DNA of 64,000 bases from Pseudomonadota bacterium (GCA_021811085.1 JAJZPQ010000002.1:132698-196697); one strand, 5' to 3'. Positions 45,435 through 55,297 are shown, numbered from the stretch's first letter. Notes: a model not told the origin generated them from the letters alone. Numbers and translations are program-made.

Positions 45435-48182
45435 ATGAAGCGCATGCTGTTTAATGCGACACAGGCCGAAGAACTCCGTGTCGCCATAGTCGATGGTCAA
45501 AAACTCATAGACCTAGACATTGAATCGGCCTCGAAAGAGCAACGCAAGAGCAATATCTACAAGGGTGTCATCACCCGTGTTGAGCCCAGCCTCGAGGCTG
45601 CGTTCATCGATTACGGCACCGACCGACACGGTTTTCTCCCGTTCAAGGAAGTCGCCCGCGCCTATTTCAAGGCAGGTGTCGACGTCGGCCGCGCGCGCAT
45701 CCAGGACGCGCTCAAGGAAGGCCAGGAACTGATCGTCCAGGTGGAAAAGGACGAGCGCGGCAATAAAGGCGCCGCGCTTACCACTTTCATCAGCCTCGCC
45801 GGACGCTACCTGGTGCTGATGCCGAACAACCCGCGCGGCGGCGGCGTATCGCGCCGCGTCGAAGGCGAAGACCGCGAAGAGCTGCGCGACACCATGGACC
45901 AGCTGCCGGTGCCGCAGGGTATGAGCGTCATCGCGCGCACCGCGGGCATCGGCCGCTCGGTGGAAGAACTCGATTGGGACCTGAAATACCTGCTGCAGCT
46001 GTGGCATGCGATCGAGGAGGCCTCCACCAGCCAGAAAGGCGCGTTCTTGATTTACCAGGAAGGCAGCCTCGTGATCCGCGCCATCCGCGACTACTTCCAT
46101 CCGGAAATCGGCGAGATCCTGATCGACACCGATTCTATCTTCGAGCAGGCGCAGCAGTTCATGGCGCATGTGATGCCGGACAACGTGAACCGGGTGAAGC
46201 GCTACCGCGACGACGTGCCCCTGTTCTCGCGCTTCCAGATCGAGCACCAGATCGAAACCGCCTATTCGCGCCAGGTCAACCTGCCTGCGGGCGGCGCCGT
46301 GGTCATCGACCATACCGAGGCGCTGGTGGCGATCGACGTCAACTCGGCGCGCTCCACCCGCGGCAGCGACATCGAGGAAACTGCGTTTCGCACCAATCTC
46401 GAGGCAGCCGAGGAGATCGCGCGCCAGCTGCGCCTGCGCGACCTGGGCGGCCTGATCGTGATCGACTTCATCGACATGGAGTCGCAGCGCAACCAGCGCG
46501 AAGTCGAAAACCGCCTGCGCGAATCGCTGCACTTCGACCGCGCGCGCGTGCAGATGGGCAAGATTTCGCGCTTCGGCCTAATGGAACTGTCGCGCCAGCG
46601 CCTGCGCCCGTCGCTAGGCGAAGGCAGCACCATCACCTGCCCGCGCTGCAATGGCATCGGCCATATCCGCGGCATCGAATCCACGGCGCTGCACATCCTG
46701 CGCATCATCCAGGAAGAAGCGATGAAGGAAAATACCGCCGCCGTGCATGCGCAGGTGCCGGTGGACGTCGCGACCTTCCTCTTGAACGAGAAGCGCACCG
46801 ACATTCACAGCGTGGAAGCGCGCCTCAAGGTCAATGTAGTGCTGATCCCGAACACGCATTTGGAAACGCCGCATTACCAGATTTCGCGCCTGCGCCACGA
46901 CGATCTGAACCAGGCCGAACCGCTGCCCGCCAGCTATAACATGGTGCAATTGCCGGCCGAGGAAGAAACCAAGCCGCAGACCGGCGCAGAGCCGAAGGCG
47001 GTGCGGCAGCAGGCCGCGGTGCAGGGCATCACCCCAGCCGAACCCGCGCCTATGCCGGTGGCGAAACCGGCCGCCCCGCAGGAGCAAGCCAAGCCAGGCA
47101 TCATTTCCCGCATCATGGGTTGGTTCAAGGGAGAAACTCCTGCGGCCGAGGCCGAACCCAGCAGCGGCATTCGTCCTTCGCGCCGTGAACCCCGGCGTGA
47201 GCCGCAGCGCGATCGCGGTGAACGCGGTGAACGCGGAGATCGTGGAGAGCGCGGCGGACGTGGCGGGCGCGGCGGACGCGACCGGCAGGAGCGCGGTGGA
47301 CGCGAAGCACGTCCGGCGCAAGGCGAAGTCAACCGGCCGGAACAGCGCGAGCCGCGTCAGGAACGCAGCCGCGGCGAGCGCCCGGAACGCGAAGCACGTC
47401 CCGAGCGCGGTGAACGCCCCGAGCGCGAAGCGCGGCCGGAACGGGAAGCACGTCCCGAGCGCGGTGAGCGCCCGCAGCGCGAACCGCGTGAACCACGCGA
47501 GCCGCGTCAGCCAAGAGTGCAACCGCAAGGCGAGCTGCAGTCCGGCGCCGAAGCCAGGCCGCAGGGTGAAGCACGTCCCGAGGGCGGCGAACCCGGACGC
47601 AGTCGCGGCCGGCGCGGCCGCGGTGGCCGCGGTGAACGCGGTGAAAGAGGCGACCGCGGTGAACGTGGTGAACGCGGTCCGCGCATGGAGCGCGGCGAGC
47701 GGACCGAGCCAGCCGAACGCGTGCGCGCCGAGCAAGCCGAACACGCCGCGCGCGCGCTGCGCGAGGAGCACGAAGCTGAACCGCAAACCGAACCGAGCAC
47801 GCCGCTGGAGTCGGCCATGCCCGAGGAGCATCGGCCTGCCCCGGCACCCGTAGAGGCTGCGATTTTCGCTGAGCCGGCTGCAGCTGTTGCGGCGGTCGAA
47901 CTCAGCGCCGTGCCTGAACCCGCAGCGCCTGCGCCTGCGATCAGCCGCGTTGAACCCGCCGTCGCAACGGCGCCTGTCGCGCCGCCGGCGCCTGCGCCGA
48001 TCGATGTCGATAAGGCATTGCAGGAAAGCGGCCTGGTGCTGGTGCAGACCGATCCGAGCAAAGTGAAGCTGGCAGAGCCGCCAGCCGAGCCTCAGTTCGT
48101 GCCGGCGCGGCCGCGTCCGCGGCGCACCCCGCCCCCCGACTCCGGGCCACTGCAAATCGTGGAAACACGCAAAGATGCCTAA
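45435..48182 (+). CDS. rne: Ribonuclease E
   Basis: 915 aa. [31 protein letters not shown]1 domain, the DNase-I-like/Zn-link catalytic half ([12 protein letters not shown]), then a low-complexity Arg/Glu/Pro-rich scaffold half. Confidence 0.95.
47170..47720 (+). repeat. Degenerate in-frame tandem repeats encoding the Arg/Glu/Gly/Pro-rich segments of RNase E
   Basis: The protein reads [21 protein letters not shown] ... (ERPEREARP / [12 protein letters not shown]) x several ... [24 protein letters not shown]. The DNA shows repeated cgcgaagcacgtcccgagcgcggtga units. All other frames stay open here because of composition. Confidence 0.7.
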
Positions 48183-48268: not shown

Positions 48269-48374
48269 GCTGACCCAGGATGCCATGCCACGCCGCGCCG
48301 GCTGGCGCCGCGCCCCGGCAATGTTGTAAGCTGTGCGGCCCCAGCCACCAATGCGGCCAGCGCCCGCTACTTCC

Positions 48375-49601
48375 ATGACCCAATCCGCAGTCAACAATCC
48401 GGACGAACCCATGCTCGCCGGGATTACCGTCCTCGATTTCACCCGCGTGCTGGCCGGACCGTACGCGACGCGCATGCTCGCCGATCTGGGCGCGCATGTG
48501 ATCAAGATCGAACGCCCCGGCGAAGGCGATGAGATCCGCCATACCGTGCTGCAACTCGATCCCGCACGCACGGACCAGAGCAGTTATTTCGCGCGGCTGA
48601 ACGCGGGCAAGGAGAGCATCGCCATCGATCTCGCGCATGCGCAGGCGCGCGAAATCGCGCTCGACCTGGTGCGCAACGCGGATGTGGTGGTGGAAAATTT
48701 CTCCCCCGGCGTGATGGCGCGCTACGGCCTGGACGATGCCGCGCTGCGCGCCCTGCGCCCCGACCTCGTCTACTGCTCGATCTCGGGCTTCGGCCAGACC
48801 GGACCGCTCGCTTCGATGCAGGCCTACGCGCATCTGATCAATGCCATCTCCGGCATGATGGACCTGGACCGCGGCAGCGAGGCGCAGCCGCGCGTGGCCT
48901 ATTTGCAGGCGGCCGATGTGCTCGCCGGCGCCCATGCATTCGGCGCGATCTGCGCAGCCCTGGTGCGCCGAGGCCGCAGCGGGCGCGGCGCCTACCTGGA
49001 CGTGTCGATGCTCGAGTGCCTGGTCGCCGCGGACGACCTCACCTACGGCGCGATCCTGAACGGCGGCAAGGTGCAACGCGAGCCGCGCATAGGCATGGTG
49101 GTGCATCCCATAGGCGGGCGTTACCTGGCGATGCAAAGCGCGGGCGCGCCGCACCTGTGGTCGCGCCTGGTGAACCTGATCGGCCGGCCCGAACTCGAAA
49201 CCGATCCGCGCTTTTCCACGCCGATGGCGCGGCGCGCGAACTGGCATGACCTGCTCAAAATCCTGCGCGCGTGGCTCAGCGGCTTCGACAGCGTGGAACA
49301 GGCGGTCAAAACGCTTTCTGCGGCGCGCATCCCGGCCGTGCCCATGCTCTCCCCCGAGGAAGTCATCGACCACCCGCAGCTCGCGGCGCGCTCGGCGTTT
49401 CCCGAAATCGAGCACCGCGGCCGCGGCCGCATACGCGTGACGGCGCTGCCGTTCCATGTCGACCACGCCCCGGTCGCCCCGGGCGGCCCGGCGCCCTATC
49501 GCGTCGGCGAACATACGCAGCAGGTGCTGCAAGGACTCGGCTACGATGCCGAGCGCATCCGTGCGCTGCAGGCGGAGCGGGTGGTCGAGATTCCGGACTG
49601 A
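48375..49601 (+). CDS. Family III CoA-transferase (CaiB/BaiF family)
   Basis: GITVLDFTRVLAGPYATRMLADLGAHVIKIERPGEGDEIR is the family III N-terminal signature. Start ATG 48375, 48333 or 48411. Confidence 0.85.
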   Translation: MTQSAVNNPDEPMLAGITVLDFTRVLAGPYATRMLADLGAHVIKIERPGEGDEIRHTVLQLDPARTDQSSYFARLNAGKESIAIDLAHAQAREIALDLVRNADVVVENFSPGVMARYGLDDAALRALRPDLVYCSISGFGQTGPLASMQAYAHLINAISGMMDLDRGSEAQPRVAYLQAADVLAGAHAFGAICAALVRRGRSGRGAYLDVSMLECLVAADDLTYGAILNGGKVQREPRIGMVVHPIGGRYLAMQSAGAPHLWSRLVNLIGRPELETDPRFSTPMARRANWHDLLKILRAWLSGFDSVEQAVKTLSAARIPAVPMLSPEEVIDHPQLAARSAFPEIEHRGRGRIRVTALPFHVDHAPVAPGGPAPYRVGEHTQQVLQGLGYDAERIRALQAERVVEIPD

Positions 49602-50045
49602 ATCCAGACTCCCGGAGCTGATGCCGGGCGCGTATCTGCAGAACGACAAAGCCGCCGTCGATGCCGAACTCGCGGCAGACGATTACATCCGGCAGACCTA
49701 TCTCGGTGTTGCATGAATGCCTCGACCCGCAGGCATGGACGCGGCTTGGCCCTGGATCAACGAACGCAAGATTCCGGGATAGCGGCGCCAAGCGATGCAC
49801 TTGTTTCGCAGTAAATCCAGTGTCGCACCTTCGTCTTCACCAACCCACCTTGGGCCGCTATCTGCCGCAAAGCGAACGAATTATCCGACGGCTTAAGGGG
49901 TCGTGTTTCGGCCAGAACCGACATTGGCTAAGCTTCCCCATAAAACATAGACACGCGCAGTGGAAGCAACATCGGTCTCAGCCCCACGGGACGGCGCGCA
50001 AATCAGATTGGCCTTGCGCCTCCACGAAGGTGTCTGAGCCTAGAG

Positions 50046-50082
50046 AACCCAGTTCTGGGTTGACTTAACCCATATCTGGGCT
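50046..50082 (+). promoter_or_regulatory. Two operator-like 16-bp dyads (AACCCA-N4-TGGGYT) spaced 21 bp apart
   Basis: Dyad 1 is AACCCAGTTCTGGGTT (50046-50061), with perfect 7-bp arms. Dyad 2 is AACCCATATCTGGGCT (50067-50082), 5/6 in the right arm. Dyad 1 abuts or overlaps the -35; dyad 2 fills the promoter spacer. Confidence 0.45.
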
Positions 50083-50088
50083 CATTAT
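50060..50088 (+). promoter_or_regulatory. Candidate sigma70 promoter placing the transcription start at or next to the ATG (leaderless mRNA)
   Basis: TTGACT (50060-50065, 5/6), a 17-nt spacer, CATTAT (50083-50088, 4/6 with A2 and T6), then 6 nt (ATCCAG) to the ATG at 50095. No Shine-Dalgarno sequence before that ATG. Confidence 0.5.
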
Positions 50089-50094
50089 ATCCAG

Positions 50095-50571
50095 ATGAAG
50101 ACGCGAAAACTTACTGCCTCAGATGTTTGCGAGGTCACAGGATATAGCAGGGATCAACTCAAAGCGCTGCTAAAAGGGGTGCCCACTTGGTCTCCCGCGC
50201 CGAGCGCACGCGTAGCGAGGGAATTCTTGCCGCATGACTTGATCGTGCTCGGAGTGGTTCGGGCTCTTGACAGCCGCGTAGGCATGCGGCGCAAGCAGAT
50301 AGGATTGATGCTTCCAAAATTGCGGCAAGCGTTACTTGGCCCGCGGGAAGTGGATAGGTCCGCCTATCTGGCGATCTCGTTCAATCCACTGCATGTCGAG
50401 TACGTCAGCGAAAAGACTTCAATTAGGGAAGGAGTCATGGTTTCGCTTGAGCCCATTTTCGACCGCGTCGACGGTTACCTTGGTGCGGCTCAATCTTGGA
50501 ACGCGTCCCAAGAGAACCTTCGGCTTCCGCTCGGCGCGGTTCGATCCCGTCGACGTAAAGCCGCCGGGTAA
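50095..50571 (+). CDS. MerR/excisionase-like HTH protein, putative regulator of the islet operon
   Basis: 158 aa. LTASDVCEVTGYSRDQLKALLK followed by FLPHDLIVLGVVRALDSRVGMRRKQIG resembles the MerR-type HTH + wing layout. The C-terminal ~80 aa are unassigned. 14 nt upstream of the methyltransferase. Confidence 0.55.
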   Translation: MKTRKLTASDVCEVTGYSRDQLKALLKGVPTWSPAPSARVAREFLPHDLIVLGVVRALDSRVGMRRKQIGLMLPKLRQALLGPREVDRSAYLAISFNPLHVEYVSEKTSIREGVMVSLEPIFDRVDGYLGAAQSWNASQENLRLPLGAVRSRRRKAAG

Positions 50572-50585
50572 GAAAGTCCAGTACG

Positions 50586-53540
50586 ATGAACGCCGCGCCG
50601 CTCCAACGAGTCCTCGAAGCAACTGGCTTCTTTCCGGATGGAGAACCTGCGCGCGGACTTCAGTTAGCCGCCAAGGCCCGTGAACGTCGTGGGCGGGTAT
50701 TTTCGCCCGATGCATCCTGGCGAAGCCCTTCCGCACTCAAGGTCTACTTCAAGTTCGAACCGAGCATACCTTTGAACAGCGTCATCGGTGAATGGCGCCG
50801 CGAGATCTGGAACGAAGGATTCTCACCACTATTGTGGATTGTCTCACCGGACAAAATTGAGCTTTTCAATGGTTTTGGCGAGCCGATGGAAAGCGGTGAT
50901 GCTGAGGCCAACCGGATCGCTACCTTTCGAAACATCGATTCTGAACTTCGTGAGCTGGATGCCCTAGCAGGTCGTGTGGCACTTGAGACGGGTCAGTCCT
51001 GGCGTCAAATGCCACAGATCGACCGGAAGTCGAGCGTCGACCAGAGACTACTGTCCGATTTGGCGCACCTGGAACACGATTTAGTTGAGATGAATCTCGA
51101 TAGGCACGCGGCTCAGGCACTAATCGGCAGGACCATATTCACGCAATATCTCATCGACCGTGGAATCGTTAGTTCCTTGCGGCTCAAGAAGCTGACCGGA
51201 CATTCGACACTTCCGCCAATACTTCGAGACCGAAATGCTACTGCCCGGCTCTTTGCGTGGCTAAGCGAGACGTTCAACGGCGACATGTTCCCGCCATCTT
51301 CAGCAACGAACACTCCACGCACCTCCTACTTGGGCCGAGTAGCAGATTTTCTCGCCGCAACCGATCCGGTCTCGGGGCAAACTTCATTCTTTCCTTATCA
51401 ATTTGACGTGATCCCCGTTGAGTTGATTAGTTCGATCTACGAGCAGTTCGCCCACTCGGCTTCCGAATCCAAGGCCGGCGTAGACGCTCGAAAGCATGGA
51501 ATTCACTACACGCGGCTCTCCGCAGTCTCGTTGGTCCTTGACGAGGTCATGAATGGACTCACGGGACGGGAAAGTGTGCTCGATTTGACCTGCGGTTCCG
51601 GGGTTTTCCTTGTCGAGGCGTTGCGCCGGCTCGTTGCGCTGCAAACTCCTGATGGAAGTCCGTCGCGCGATGTAATCCGGAAGACGCTTTATCAGCAGGT
51701 TTACGGAATCGATCTGAGCGAGGCCGCGATTCGGGTTGCGGCATTCAGTTTGTACCTTTCGGCGCTTGAGCTGGACCCAGATCCGCATCCCCCAGAGGAA
51801 CTCAAGTTCGATCCTCTAGTTAATCGAACGCTTTTTGCGGGAAACGCTCACACAATCGAGCTAACTCGAGAAGGCGCGGCGCGGCTCACGGAAGATGGCG
51901 CCCTGAAAAAGTTCGATCTAATCGTAGGTAACCCGCCTTGGAGCTTCAAAGGCAAACGTGGGACAGCTGCCAGACGCAAAGGTCGAGCCCACGGTGTGCC
52001 CGCGCAACCGCGCGGTGAAGGGCTGGATTTTCTTCATCGCGCAATAGCGTTTTCGCACGAGAGAACCAGATTCGGGGTGATTCTTAACGCAATGTCGTTT
52101 TTCAGTGGGAGTGCCACTGGCATCGCGGCCGCAAAGCACGTTCTGCGTCTTCTGGCTCCTGTCACTTTAGTAAATCTGTCCTCGCTATCTGGCTGGTTGT
52201 TCGCCACAGCGAGTGCGCCAGCGGTCGTCCTTTACGCGCGGCATCGCGCGCAACGACCTGATCAATTGACAGTTGTCCAAGTACCTTGGTCGGCCGCTGG
52301 TACCCGGACACACACGTTCGAGGTTTCACGGAGTGATGTCATACGGCTAACACTCGCGGAGGTCGAGAAGAATCCGTTCAAACTCAAGGCGGCTGCAGTG
52401 GGCCGGCGCCGCGATCTGGCACTTCTCGACGATCTCGGCTCTTCGTTCTCCACGTTGGCCGCACAGCTTACCTTGTTCCAAACCAAACTGAGCGATGGGC
52501 TTACCCACGGTTCACCAAGTAATCAGACTCGCGATGCGCGCGCCCTGAAGGGGCTTGAGGTACTCGACGCCAAAAATATCAGGCCGATGTCAATTCCAGA
52601 CTCTCTCCCGCGCTTTACGCTGTTAAGAGCTCAGTGGCCTCGGACACAAGAGACGTATCGCGCTCCACTCGTGATTATCAAGGAAATGGTTGGAGACAAT
52701 GCCCGGGCAATAGCGGCCGTATCTGAGCGAGACCTTATTTTTACTGATGCATTTTTCGGCGTGTCTCTGCCCAAGAGTTATGCTCCAATCGCGCATCTTC
52801 TCGTCGCGGTGTTGAGCTCATCGGTCGCGTCGTGGTTCTTCACAATGACTGCTTCTGAATTCGCGATCTGGAAGCGGAAACTCCTGATTCGGGACGTGAA
52901 TCTCTTGCCGATCCCGGATCTTAAGGCGGCCGCGGCATCTTCCGTTGGCAAGCAGCTATTGCGTCTGTCGAGGAAGATGCATGGGCAAGTCGGAGGCGCC
53001 GATGATTGGGCTGCCTTAGACCTAGCGGTATTCGATCTTTATGGGCTTGATGACGCAGACCGCGCAGTGGTGCAAGACGGTTGGTTCCGAGCAAGCTGGC
53101 AATGGCAGGCCGGAAGGGAAGCATCCGTGTCGGCTGCAAGCATCGACTTGGATCTCCCCAACTACGCTCGACTATTTCTATCCGTGGTTTCAGGCTGGCT
53201 TTCTATTCGGAATGAACAGCATATGCGCGCGGAGATTTTCGACGTGCCAGCGCGAAATGCACTGCGAGTCATCAGATTTATACTTGAACCAGGATCAGGA
53301 CCGTCCAGCATCAATGTGGTTCAAGTCAACTGCGAACTTAACGAGGTGCTAGCGAACATTGGCAAGCGGCTCAATGTAAAAATCGCCAGCGCATTGAGCG
53401 CGAGCCGGGAGCTACGCGTCCATGGCAGAAACGAGGTCGTCATCGTGAAGCCGTCGGCTCGTCGCTATTGGATGGGCGTTTGCGCCCTCGATGATGCTGA
53501 TGCCGTGGTGGCTGAAAGCCTCGCCGGTACCGCTGAATGA
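50586..53540 (+). CDS. Large gamma-class N6-adenine DNA methyltransferase with MmeI/Eco57I-like layout (unassigned N-domain, helical connector, MTase, large C-terminal specificity region)
   Basis: 984 aa. ELISSIYEQF (res ~279-288). Motif X HGIHYTRLSAVSLVLDEV. Motif I VLDLTCGSGVFL (res 331-342, nt 51576-51611). Motif IV NPPW (res 449-452, nt 51930-51941). Connector LIGRTIFTQYLIDRGI (res ~179-194). About 430 aa after the MTase core have no motif I recognise. Confidence 0.85.
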   Translation: MNAAPLQRVLEATGFFPDGEPARGLQLAAKARERRGRVFSPDASWRSPSALKVYFKFEPSIPLNSVIGEWRREIWNEGFSPLLWIVSPDKIELFNGFGEPMESGDAEANRIATFRNIDSELRELDALAGRVALETGQSWRQMPQIDRKSSVDQRLLSDLAHLEHDLVEMNLDRHAAQALIGRTIFTQYLIDRGIVSSLRLKKLTGHSTLPPILRDRNATARLFAWLSETFNGDMFPPSSATNTPRTSYLGRVADFLAATDPVSGQTSFFPYQFDVIPVELISSIYEQFAHSASESKAGVDARKHGIHYTRLSAVSLVLDEVMNGLTGRESVLDLTCGSGVFLVEALRRLVALQTPDGSPSRDVIRKTLYQQVYGIDLSEAAIRVAAFSLYLSALELDPDPHPPEELKFDPLVNRTLFAGNAHTIELTREGAARLTEDGALKKFDLIVGNPPWSFKGKRGTAARRKGRAHGVPAQPRGEGLDFLHRAIAFSHERTRFGVILNAMSFFSGSATGIAAAKHVLRLLAPVTLVNLSSLSGWLFATASAPAVVLYARHRAQRPDQLTVVQVPWSAAGTRTHTFEVSRSDVIRLTLAEVEKNPFKLKAAAVGRRRDLALLDDLGSSFSTLAAQLTLFQTKLSDGLTHGSPSNQTRDARALKGLEVLDAKNIRPMSIPDSLPRFTLLRAQWPRTQETYRAPLVIIKEMVGDNARAIAAVSERDLIFTDAFFGVSLPKSYAPIAHLLVAVLSSSVASWFFTMTASEFAIWKRKLLIRDVNLLPIPDLKAAAASSVGKQLLRLSRKMHGQVGGADDWAALDLAVFDLYGLDDADRAVVQDGWFRASWQWQAGREASVSAASIDLDLPNYARLFLSVVSGWLSIRNEQHMRAEIFDVPARNALRVIRFILEPGSGPSSINVVQVNCELNEVLANIGKRLNVKIASALSASRELRVHGRNEVVIVKPSARRYWMGVCALDDADAVVAESLAGTAE

Positions 53541-54199
53541 AACTGCCCGACGAGGCCCCGGCGGCGCTCGGCCACGAGTTTATTGCGCTATCTACGGACG
53601 TCACTGTCGCGATACTCACTATTCTGACCGCTGGATGGCGCCGTGCGAAAGCATACCGCGACGTAAATACGCAGGCTGGTGAGGTACCTGTCACAGAGCG
53701 TCTTCGGGACGGTATGAGACAAGCGCTCAAGCTGGATGGATATCCGTGGGCCAAGATGCTCTTGGTGCTACCCGGAACGGAGGCGCGATCACGGGAAGCG
53801 CTTGTTCCAGATGGTCGGACCGATATCCCGCTCGTATGGCTTGAGATTTTTCTTCGGCACGGCGAGCATGATCCGCATGCGATCGTTGAATGTAAGCGGA
53901 TCGCTGGCTCGGACACATCCCTTTGCCGCGAATATGTGATCGAAGGCATAGACCGGTTCCGGTCCGGCAAGTATGGGTTCAATCACGCTGTCGGCTTTAT
54001 GGTCGGATATTTGCTTTGTGGCACCGATGCAGAGGCGGTCGCGGGTATCAATGGCTATTTAAACCGGCAAGGCCGCACTGATGAAGAGCTTCGCAGCTCG
54101 GGTTCGGCAGCAGCGACGTGGGCTAGTCGTCATGGCCGAGCTTCCTCCTCCGCAATTTCGCTGCACCATATGTTCTTTGAGCTCGCAACAGTGATGTGA
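53537..54199 (+). CDS. Mrr-like PD-(D/E)xK nuclease (putative restriction endonuclease partner)
   Basis: 220 aa. Helix VTERLRDGMRQALKLDGY (E54), then VPDGRTDIPLVW (P91-D92, D96), then AIVECKRIAG (E118-C-K120, nt 53888-53896): the classic E...PD...ExK order. The ATG overlaps the methyltransferase stop (ATGA at 53537-53540). Confidence 0.6.
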   Translation: MKLPDEAPAALGHEFIALSTDVTVAILTILTAGWRRAKAYRDVNTQAGEVPVTERLRDGMRQALKLDGYPWAKMLLVLPGTEARSREALVPDGRTDIPLVWLEIFLRHGEHDPHAIVECKRIAGSDTSLCREYVIEGIDRFRSGKYGFNHAVGFMVGYLLCGTDAEAVAGINGYLNRQGRTDEELRSSGSAAATWASRHGRASSSAISLHHMFFELATVM

Positions 54200-54592
54200 T
54201 AAATCAGAACAGAGCTTATCCTGAGTCGGTGTGGGGGGCGAAGATTAGCGACCCTAAACCTGGGCTTCGTTGCAACGGCTGCGAGACAAGTCCAAGATGT
54301 TGGGAATGATCGCTTTGGGTCGGATACGGCCGGTTAATCAAGCGTGATCGAGGTCCGCCCCTGGCGGCAAAGCGATTACGGCACCAATACGAGGACCGCC
54401 GCCCTGTTTGCTCGCAGACAGGAAAATCGCGAGAGGGGAAAAGCCCTAAACTCCGCGTCCCTCCTCGCTCTGCGGCCGATTCCCCGCCGAACTTTGAGCG
54501 CGTAGCCCGCCCTCTCCCGCCTCACCGGGAGAGGAATTTCCCGTCCTGACTTTTCTCCGGCGCCCGTACCTGGCGCTTTGCCCCTCGGGGAA

Positions 54593-55297
54593 TCAGCGTC
54601 CCGCGCCGCGGCTGCGCACCAGCTGGTACGGCCGCAGCAGGTAGAACACCGAGGCGAAGCCGCTCCAGATATGCACCAGGCGCGTGAACGGAAACAGCAG
54701 GAAGATCGTGAGGCCGATGGTCAGGTGCAGCTTGAACACGATCGAGGCGCCGGCGATGAGGTCTGCCGCTCCCGAGCGGAAGGTCCAGATGCGCTGCGCC
54801 CAATCCATCAGTTTCAGCATCTCCGAGCCGTCGAGGTGCTGCGCCGAGACCGGGATCGTGGCGAGACCGATCAGGACCTGCACCAGGAACAACACGAGCA
54901 CCAGGATATCGCTCGGTTTGCTGGTGGCGCGAATGCGCGCGTCGCCGAGACGGCGCAGCAGCAGAATCAGCAATCCCGCGGTCAGGATCACCCCGAAAAT
55001 TCCTCCCGCGATCATCGCTGTCAGTTGCTTTTCGCTCGCCGGTACTCCCAGAAAGTTCCACACCGCGTGCGGCGTGAGCAGGCCGCCGAGGTGGCCGAAG
55101 AAAATGCCAAGGATGCCGATGTGGAACAGGTTCGACCCCCATCTGAGCTGGCCATGGCGCAGCAACTGGGACGAATCGCTCTTCCAGGTGTACTGCTCGC
55201 GGTCGAAGCGGATCAGGCTGCCGAGGAAAAACACCACCAGGCAGATGTACGGGTAATAGCCGAACAGGAACTGGTTCAGATAGGCGTTGAGGTCCAT
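54593..55297 (-). CDS. narI: Respiratory nitrate reductase gamma subunit
   Basis: 234 aa. MDLNAYLNQFLFGYYPYICLVVFFLGSLIRFDREQYTWKSDSSQLL, with haem-ligand His in the TM helices. Confidence 0.93.
   Translation of the reverse strand: MDLNAYLNQFLFGYYPYICLVVFFLGSLIRFDREQYTWKSDSSQLLRHGQLRWGSNLFHIGILGIFFGHLGGLLTPHAVWNFLGVPASEKQLTAMIAGGIFGVILTAGLLILLLRRLGDARIRATSKPSDILVLVLFLVQVLIGLATIPVSAQHLDGSEMLKLMDWAQRIWTFRSGAADLIAGASIVFKLHLTIGLTIFLLFPFTRLVHIWSGFASVFYLLRPYQLVRSRGAGR

Follow-up and report, generated by a model that had tools for sequence, protein, structure and literature searches.

A three-gene mobile restriction-modification cassette in which a Type IIG-like enzyme is probably split into two polypeptides

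How does a large adenine methyltransferase with the domain order of a single-chain Type IIG restriction enzyme work, if its fused N-terminal domain lacks the intact D...(D/E)xK motif of such an enzyme? This question is raised by a locus in a 64,000-nucleotide (nt) stretch of DNA from a Pseudomonadota bacterium (GCA_021811085.1 JAJZPQ010000002.1:132698-196697; the whole stretch is referred to here as the window), in which an open reading frame (ORF) of 984 amino acids (aa) is followed by a gene for a small predicted nuclease. A reading made from the DNA alone (hereafter the sequence-only reading) had proposed that the large protein, with Type IIL (MmeI-like) proportions and no recognisable nuclease motif in its N-terminal module, might be part of a split Type IIG system. 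In this paper, we have analysed the locus together with its relatives, and the results support the split. We give a probability of about 0.6 to the reading that the three genes form a horizontally mobile restriction-modification operon and that a Type IIG-like enzyme is here divided between two of their products; neither an intact N-terminal nuclease nor a family of orphan methylases was found. The cassette is 4.3 kb long and consists of three genes on the same strand, the last two of which share 4 nt (ATGA) between the stop codon of the methyltransferase and the start codon of the nuclease:

50095..50571, plus strand: gene of the 158-aa helix-turn-helix protein
50586..53540, plus strand: methyltransferase ORF, ATG start, 984 aa
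53537..54199, plus strand: gene of the 220-aa PD-(D/E)xK nuclease

The large ORF and all the motifs that the sequence-only reading had quoted were found where it had placed them. Its four-part layout (an N-terminal module, a helical connector, a methyltransferase core and a large C-terminal region) stands as well; its boundaries do not, as the N-terminal module is an alpha/beta domain of residues 1-117 rather than of ~150 aa, and the connector takes up residues 118-293 in the AlphaFold model. The C-terminal region of ~430 aa, which had been considered large enough for a target-recognition domain, turned out to be TaqI/CamA-like up to residue ~820, and to be followed by another conserved domain at ~860-984. 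The parts of the protein are listed below:

50586..50936, plus strand: N-domain, residues 1-117, PD-(D/E)xK-like fold without canonical ExK (D42 ... Y54-F55-K56)
50937..51464, plus strand: connector, residues 118-293, all-helical in the AlphaFold model
51465..52280, plus strand: methyltransferase core, residues 294-565, from Pfam and PDB profile matches
52281..53165, plus strand: recognition region, residues 566-860, TaqI_C/CamA-like to ~820, the fastest-evolving part
53166..53540, plus strand: C-terminal domain, residues 861-984 and the stop codon, RELRVHGRNEVVIVKPSARRYWM ... DADAVVAE

By its motifs, the 984-aa protein is a gamma-class N6-adenine methyltransferase, the enzymatic activity being a prediction. 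Motif X (GIHYTR, residues 305-310, with HYTR at 307-310), motif I (VLDLTCGSGVFL, 331-342, including DLTCGSGVFL at 333-342) and motif IV (GNPPW, 448-452, with NPPW at 449-452) follow one another in the gamma order and are invariant among the relatives. The Pfam family N6_Mtase covers residues 280-561 (E 2e-11), and the Eco57I and MmeI_Mtase cores also match above their cut-offs; residues 1-280 are not covered by any Pfam family. When a profile of the diverse alignment was compared with PDB, the best match was CamA of Clostridioides difficile (7lni/8cxz; query residues 295-819, E 2.9e-21), which takes in both the methyltransferase and the recognition domain, and further matches were obtained with BseCI, HsdM, BrxX, BsaXI, LlaGI, DrdV and MmeI. 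Pfam TaqI_C matches the window protein faintly at residues 663-776, and 2 of 16 diverse members match it as well (best E 2.4e-4). No Pfam or PDB match was found for residues 861-984; this domain is kept to its very end even in relatives at 24-35% identity, and the per-column conservation (the share of the commonest residue) reaches 0.89-0.94 over residues 941-980. The mean pairwise identities among 119 close homologues are distributed along the chain as follows:

residues 1-117, N-domain: 0.75
residues 118-293, connector: 0.79
residues 294-565, methyltransferase core: 0.83
residues 566-880, recognition region: 0.62-0.65
residues 881-984, C-terminal domain: 0.74

The fast evolution of the recognition region is best seen in a pair of related loci (L016 and L027), in which residues 566-860 are 72% identical and all else, including the nuclease, is 89-92% identical, with the differences scattered over residues 621-820. 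The value for the nuclease itself is 91%, and this combination fits a specificity region that diversifies faster than the nuclease.

Is the N-terminal domain itself able to cut DNA? From an alignment (A5) of 83 sequences at 29-87% identity, an AlphaFold2 model of residues 1-300 was obtained with a predicted local distance difference test score (pLDDT) of 94.9 and a predicted template modelling score (pTM) of 0.91. The secondary structure of its N-domain comprises helices at residues 4-12 and 64-77, and strands at 25-27, 43-46, 52-57, 82-86, 90-95 and 110-115. A Foldseek search against PDB placed BpuSI (3s1s) first, with E 0.02, a probability of 0.80 and an alignment of 327 columns, which therefore covers the connector in addition to the nuclease. 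It was followed by Hjc (probability 0.75), HhaI, RecU, a Cas4-family protein, NucS/EndoMS, Exo5 and SSO0001; bunyavirus cap-snatching endonucleases are also among the matches, and all those listed are PD-(D/E)xK folds. In the model, strand 2 has D42 at its N-terminal end and strand 3 contains Y54-F55-K56, so that Tyr54 occupies the (D/E) position of (D/E)xK.

Residues were then counted in 79 diverse members of the superfamily, i.e. the window protein and 78 representatives mutually <50% identical. Position 54 is Tyr in 53 of them and Leu, Ile, Val, Ala, Phe, Gly, Cys, Thr, Met or His in the others; Asp or Glu was found there in 0/79, which makes the missing acid a superfamily-wide trait rather than a recent lesion. 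The would-be catalytic positions D42 (kept in 53/79) and K56 (62/79) are less conserved than the structural residues F55 (75/79), W75 (78/79) and N76 (75/79), and the best-kept residues of the domain (F55, W75, N76, P81 and L83) are hydrophobic or structural. As modelled, residues 1-117 resemble a PD-(D/E)xK fold and lack the second metal-binding carboxylate, and we read the domain as a pseudo-nuclease. The observation of the sequence-only reading that the N-terminal module has no (D/E)xK is thus confirmed and holds across the 79 members; the catalytic set of the nuclease-like fold is not intact, as a Tyr stands in the place of the central acid and Asp or Glu is never found there. Of the three options offered for the module, the evidence speaks most for a degenerate nuclease that may serve as a docking site. 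The connector had been likened to the connector helix of MmeI/PglX-type enzymes on account of LIGRTIFTQYLIDRGI (residues 179-194). This segment, together with FNGDMFP (230-236), does lie in a helical region, residues 118-293, whose extent matches that of the BpuSI connector (175-289); the nearest structural analogue of the N-terminal 300 residues is BpuSI and not MmeI or PglX. The two N-terminal motifs noted earlier, SPD (40-42) and LKVYFKFEPS (51-60, in alignment numbering), fall in the N-domain.

By its sequence motifs, the 220-aa protein is a stand-alone nuclease with an intact PD-(D/E)xK catalytic motif. It contains E49/E54, PDGRTD96IP and IVE118CK120RI, i.e. the series E...D...ExK, which in the superfamily runs from helix 1 (E) through strand 2 (D) to strand 3 ((D/E)xK); among 214 relatives, including the distant plasmid copies, E118, K120, E49 and Y146 are invariant, and D96 is kept in 211. 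The AlphaFold model of the nuclease (pTM 0.69) has the expected order alpha-beta-beta-beta-alpha-beta. No match to the protein was found in Pfam, NCBIfam, PADLOC or the PDB sequences. Its most confident model part is formed by the blocks of residues 21-80 (block means 80-92), and a conserved, strongly hydrophobic helix is found at residues 20-37 (DVTVAILTILTAGW; window 53537-53650). This N-terminal helix is a candidate for the surface by which the nuclease would dock onto the large chain. We also considered whether the nuclease might be a duplicate of the N-domain, and rejected this possibility, as hhalign gave a probability of 0.1 between the two alignments (A3 vs A2) and no homology was detectable.

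The nuclease gene accompanies the methyltransferase gene almost everywhere. A scan of one genome per species gave 80 loci, whose methyltransferases are 48-66% identical over the full 984 aa, and six loci found earlier bring the set to 86. A nuclease homologue is located directly downstream of the methyltransferase in 84 of the 86; one exception (L067) is a contig end, and the other (L062) is one genuine loss. Furthermore, all of six plasmid loci with methyltransferases at 27-32% identity have an overlapping downstream gene of 180-237 aa, whose product retains D...ExK and is recognised by the profile of the nuclease with E 3e-25 to 7e-5, and searches begun from two nuclease homologues recovered the same gene trio. 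The presence of the nuclease in 84/86 related and 6/6 distant plasmid loci speaks against a plain orphan methylase, a possibility that the sequence-only reading had kept in mind. The hosts include Beta-, Gamma- and Alphaproteobacteria, Acidobacteriota, Gemmatimonadota, Latescibacterota, Rhodothermales, Verrucomicrobiota and Geobacter, and the family spans at least six phyla or classes as well as plasmids and integrative conjugative elements. Searches with the methyltransferase matched more than 3,000 clusters at 90% identity, and those with its N-terminal 300 residues 1,741 clusters at 50% identity. As to carriage by phages, the patterns used on IMG/VR retrieved no relative. The methylome supplements of Blow et al. 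2016 were searched for six host genera or species, none of which is listed there, so that no recognition motif was assigned.

A number of copies have decayed. In L052 (3542-4293) the nuclease is broken by a frameshift. P0248, a protein of 469 aa, results from an in-frame deletion that joins residues 1 to ~320 of the methyltransferase to the C-terminal half of the nuclease; it was the sole candidate for a Rosetta-stone fusion and was rejected, for it carries the non-catalytic half of the nuclease and, as a deletion product, provides no evidence of an interaction between the two proteins. In L062 (8250-10316), the methyltransferase is followed by the gene of a GHKL-ATPase-like protein of 688 aa, near the C-terminus of which a nuclease-like motif '...DFVL...VEIKRP' is found. 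This protein may have replaced the nuclease as effector, or may belong to defence without any relation to the cassette. Mirror-tree comparisons of the nuclease with each of the methyltransferase domains gave values of 0.91-0.95 throughout, which are uninformative on the interface because they are driven by the shared phylogeny.

In the split-enzyme reading that we prefer, the 984-aa chain would recognise its target through the TaqI/CamA-like domain and methylate adenine through the NPPW core, and cleavage would be supplied by the translationally coupled 220-aa protein with its strictly conserved catalytic site. The pseudo-nuclease domain and the connector might serve to recruit or position the 220-aa protein, in a pairing of an active and an inactive nuclease fold resembling XPF-ERCC1 or Mus81-Eme1; with such recruitment, whether DNA is cut would hinge on the encounter of the methyltransferase subunit with a site that is not methylated. 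The 158-aa protein may autoregulate the single promoter of the operon through two palindromic boxes in the manner of a controller. A more far-reaching form of this proposal is that the cassette represents a distinct and very widespread class, in which the former nuclease domain of a Type IIG enzyme has become a permanent pseudo-nuclease that heterodimerises with, positions and licenses a minimal PD-(D/E)xK subunit encoded in trans. Cleavage would then be gated by methylation and take place at a fixed offset from a site that is asymmetric. We put this form forward tentatively, with the odds against it.

Several observations weigh against the split. Related proteins are entered in PADLOC under the single-chain Type IIG enzymes. 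The Foldseek search with residues 1-300 gave no match under E 0.001, the best being that at 0.02. The model of the nuclease is of moderate confidence (pLDDT 68), and its top Foldseek matches (McrC, BstEII, an arenavirus endonuclease, Can2 and Shedu) reach a best E of only 0.26. A length of 220 aa is also that of ordinary Type IIP enzymes of the PD-(D/E)xK kind, which find their targets by themselves. D42, K56 and an acid at position 73 are present together in 25 of the 79 diverse members, all of them in the branches nearest to the window protein. Finally, on an Agrobacterium plasmid (L095:3480-5699) the methyltransferase is without residues 1-263 and the nuclease is kept; this may be a decayed copy.

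A rival reading is an ordinary three-gene Type II system, composed of a self-sufficient (e.g. homodimeric) 220-aa nuclease, a cognate methyltransferase with a vestigial N-domain, and a controller. The length of the nuclease and its intact E...D...ExK are indeed typical of Type IIP enzymes, and the gene order controller-methyltransferase-nuclease and the palindromic operators fit classical systems. However, the N-domain and the connector are under strong purifying selection, as seen from their identities of 0.75 and 0.79 and from the near-invariance of W75 and N76 at <50% identity, and both are kept beside the nuclease throughout the superfamily, which is not expected of a vestige. It also speaks against such a system that the nuclease remains 91% identical where the recognition region falls to 72%, and that the recognition module is CamA-like. 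Such a module would be poorly suited to a homodimeric enzyme with a palindromic target. CamA recognises the asymmetric sequence CAAAAA (PMC8187626). Taken together, these data lead us to regard an ordinary Type II system as unlikely.

Alternatively, the N-domain might be active through a non-canonical site made up of D42, K56 and a relocated E73, in which case the system would have two catalytic centres, one for each strand. A glutamate relocated to the following helix is known from Cfr10I/NgoMIV, and the heterodimeric Type IIS enzymes BtsI and BsrDI use different catalytic centres for the two strands. E73 is located on the helix after strand 3, all 16 clade members compared have D42, K56, E58, E73 and E77, and the co-occurrence of D42, K56 and an acid at 73 mentioned above points in the same direction, as does the fact that a single PD-(D/E)xK site as a rule requires a second one to cut both strands (PMC2582602). 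Across the superfamily, however, D42 is lost in 26/79 and K56 in 17/79, and an acid at 73 occurs in only 27/79, whereas the catalytic residues of the partner are kept in 211-214 of its 214 relatives; the conservation of the N-domain rests instead with the hydrophobic and structural residues named above. An active N-domain thus seems improbable to us. Least of all do we expect a role outside restriction, i.e. an epigenetic, orphan-type methyltransferase beside a small protein of repair, an abortive-infection toxin that the methyltransferase holds in check, or a post-segregational addiction module with no antiviral function, for, although CamA, the nearest solved relative of the methyltransferase-recognition module, is an orphan regulatory enzyme (PMC8187626), and PglX-like large methyltransferases were formerly mislabelled as Type IIG in REBASE (PMC12707154), the cassette has a patchy distribution over at least six phyla or classes, is surrounded by unrelated genes in different genomes, occurs on conjugative plasmids and integrative elements, lies in a low-GC islet, has decayed copies with a frameshifted nuclease (L052), a deletion fusion (P0248) or no nuclease (L062), and couples its methyltransferase and nuclease genes tightly, which are hallmarks of restriction-modification or defence cassettes.

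How does the proposed split enzyme compare with the known systems? BpuSI comprises a nuclease (residues 6-174), a connector (175-289) and a methyltransferase (293-579), the latter two described as HsdM-like, and its catalytic residues D60, E76 and K78 form a site D60...E76-x-K78 that has been verified by mutagenesis (PMC3185434). The window protein has its parts in the same order, i.e. a domain modelled as a nuclease-like fold, the helical connector, the gamma-class N6-adenine methyltransferase and the recognition domain, with the methyltransferase beginning at ~294 as compared with 293. BpuSI, however, has an intact site and cuts alone, whereas here Tyr54 is found together with a separate, strictly conserved nuclease gene; in addition, the window protein has the extra conserved domain at 861-984, and the Foldseek E for the pair is only 0.02. 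The same holds for the other single-chain Type IIG/IIS/IIC enzymes, whose domain order is found here and whose intact D...(D/E)xK in the fused domain is not.

MmeI (PDB 5hr4; PMC2582602, PMC2731913) is similar in length (919 aa vs 984 aa), and its motifs GAHYTS (X), DPACGCGNFL (I) and NPPF (IV) follow one another as they do here (PMC2582602); MmeI_Mtase (PF20473) matches the window protein with 31.2 bits against a cut-off of 27, and is matched by 16/16 diverse members. In contrast to the motif VD70-X9-E80-M-K82 of MmeI, an enzyme that needs no second gene (PMC2582602), the window protein has D42-X11-Y54-F55-K56 without VD-X9-ExK and has a separate nuclease gene. Moreover, MmeI_N, MmeI_hel, MmeI_TRD and MmeI_C were not detected in the window protein (E <= 1) or in the 16 diverse members (E <= 0.01), and the profile alignment with 5hr4 is limited to residues 335-462. 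Membership of the MmeI family or Type IIL is rejected on the grounds of the absent ExK motif, the absent MmeI-specific domains and the separate nuclease gene; the Type IIL proportions noted by the sequence-only reading hold for the size and the methyltransferase core, and go no further. Among solved structures, CamA and the M.TaqI/M.BseCI-type enzymes are the best profile matches, the TaqI_C match being weak. CamA, however, is an orphan of 577-578 aa, without the N-terminal nuclease fold, the connector, the C-terminal extension and the nuclease partner.

The PADLOC models REase_MTase_IIG PDLC03623 and PDLC03603 align collinearly from one end to the other with the window protein and with its distant relatives (e.g. 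residues 78-1006 of P0362 align with model positions 65-1004 of 1016, E 5e-84), and it follows that branches of the superfamily have already been catalogued as putative single-chain Type IIG enzymes. The label implies a self-contained nuclease-methyltransferase, and neither the partner nuclease nor the helix-turn-helix protein is represented among the PADLOC models. Split or heterodimeric arrangements are found in BtsI, BsrDI and BbvCI, in the BcgI-type enzymes with RM plus S subunits, in the Type III Mod/Res enzymes, and in XPF-ERCC1 and Mus81-Eme1. As in the proposed pair, a catalytic subunit there relies on another polypeptide for its targeting, or an active fold is paired with an inactive paralogue. 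To our knowledge, none of them combines a Type IIG-like chain bearing a pseudo-nuclease with a helicase-less nuclease of 220 aa; no sequence similarity was detected between the N-domain and the 220-aa protein. Two further assignments were rejected. The large methyltransferase resembles the N6-adenine methyltransferase PglX/BrxX of bacteriophage exclusion (BREX) systems in the motif I region (E about 1e-3 to 1e-13), a protein that REBASE, too, had once filed as Type IIG (PMC12707154), but it obtains 18-28 bits with the NCBIfam BREX models, whose cut-offs are 400-900, and BrxC, PglZ and BrxL neighbours are absent. A Type I system was rejected for the lack of HsdS and of a helicase-containing HsdR in the window cassette and in L001-L006, although relatives carry the NCBI label 'HsdM family'; the recognition domain is here fused to the methyltransferase, unlike in Type I.

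In the literature covered, including a paper on BREX diversity and a review of restriction-modification, no description of the cassette, the pseudo-nuclease or the obligate partner was found, and no evidence of a characterised superfamily member was encountered. The relatives are annotated as 'N-6 DNA methylase', 'HsdM family' or, in PADLOC, single-chain Type IIG, and the partner as 'hypothetical protein'. The current annotation probably misdescribes the working of a very common cassette. If the split is true, the automated annotation of defence systems would have to apply a two-gene rule here, the N-domain would be a natural case of a pseudo-nuclease kept for a non-catalytic role in a restriction enzyme, and the recognition-methylation module would be separable from the nuclease, which could be of use for engineering nicking or offset-cutting enzymes. 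If the more tentative idea of a distinct class should hold as well, many single-chain 'Type IIG' entries in the databases would be misdescribed, the pair would offer a modular recognition-plus-nuclease scaffold, and it would be a prokaryotic counterpart of the logic of XPF-ERCC1 or Mus81-Eme1. No principle is overturned by this; it would extend the known modularity of restriction-modification systems.

The first gene of the cassette encodes a putative controller protein. The 158-aa product has a predicted N-terminal MerR/excisionase-like helix-turn-helix and a C-terminal domain that ends in RLPLGAVRSRRR, and matches HTH_26 weakly (E 0.005, below the cut-off). A promoter and two operator-like boxes lie upstream of its gene:

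50048..50088, plus strand: promoter with two palindromic operator-like boxes
50048-50059, plus strand: box 1, CCCAGTTCTGGG
50060-50065, plus strand: -35 hexamer TTGACT
50069-50080, plus strand: box 2, CCCATATCTGGG, inside the 17-nt spacer
ending at 50088, plus strand: -10 hexamer CATTAT, 6 nt before the ATG of the 158-aa gene

TTGACT-17-CATTAT is the sole sigma-70-like site in 49600-54600, and the pattern of two CCCAnnnCTGGG boxes is found nowhere else in the 64-kb window. The boxes of the window type and the hexamers are conserved in the relatives L089-L092. In the main clade, two GTTGnnnnCAAC palindromes are found instead of these boxes, in the region of ~120 nt upstream of the regulator (L001, L004, L006, L009, L011, L017, L021, L027, L051, L055, L057 and L068); one of the pair abuts the start codon of the helix-turn-helix gene, and the other lies ~45 nt upstream. 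The difference between GTTGnnnnCAAC and CCCAnnnCTGGG suggests that operator and regulator have co-diverged. The upstream protein of the main clade has 156-163 aa, its gene overlaps the start of the methyltransferase gene, and it matches MerR_1 (E 8e-4) and HTH_17 weakly, below their cut-offs. BLAST detected no match between the window protein of 158 aa and this upstream gene, whereas profile-profile comparison (hhalign) of the two families gave a probability of 87% and an E of 3.9e-6, collinear over 144 columns, and homology of the helix-turn-helix families of the two clades is supported by this comparison of profiles. A gene of this regulator family is located upstream in 76 of 99 loci, and in L087 and L088 an unrelated 96-aa XRE-type helix-turn-helix gene is found in its place; being present in 76/99 and swapped in at least two loci, the regulator is a replaceable accessory of a core formed by the methyltransferase-nuclease pair. 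In L093 (3291-3833) and L094 (241-783), members of the clade of P0008 (67% identical to the window methyltransferase), no upstream gene was called on the same strand. Translated search nevertheless revealed a strong match to the helix-turn-helix protein of the window type (E about 2e-90) in both, and the gene was probably missed by the caller or is disrupted.

The mobility of the cassette is evident from its surroundings, which are unrelated between genomes. Stutzerimonas, Dechloromonas, Thauera, Zoogloea, Ectopseudomonas, Rhodanobacter and Yanghanlia have a whole locus of 13 kb in common, with DNA identities of 93-98%; these near-identical loci are L025-L037, L084 and L021 (e.g. L027:1-12952), and the identity spans the cassette and 5 kb on each side. 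They are flanked by genes for TraC, a thioredoxin-like protein and RadC upstream and for TraU downstream, and in these loci the cassette is cargo within the transfer region of a recently spreading conjugative element. The distant relatives are located on conjugative plasmids, adjoining recombinases.

In the window itself, the cassette lies in an islet with a G+C content of 0.51-0.58, compared with 0.63-0.73 in the flanks according to the composition profiles, and its neighbours are RNase E, a coenzyme A (CoA)-transferase and narIJHG:

49700..54400, no strand: low-GC islet with the cassette, from composition profiles
48333..49601: CoA-transferase gene at the upstream edge of the islet
54593..55297, minus strand: narI (part of narIJHG) at the downstream edge of the islet

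The search of the islet borders for terminal repeats or att sites returned nothing convincing, and no integrase adjoins the islet in the gene calls of the window. The RNase E homologue (45435-48182, plus strand) has a long, highly repetitive C-terminal half rich in Arg, Glu and Pro, which also gives rise to many spurious long ORFs in other frames.

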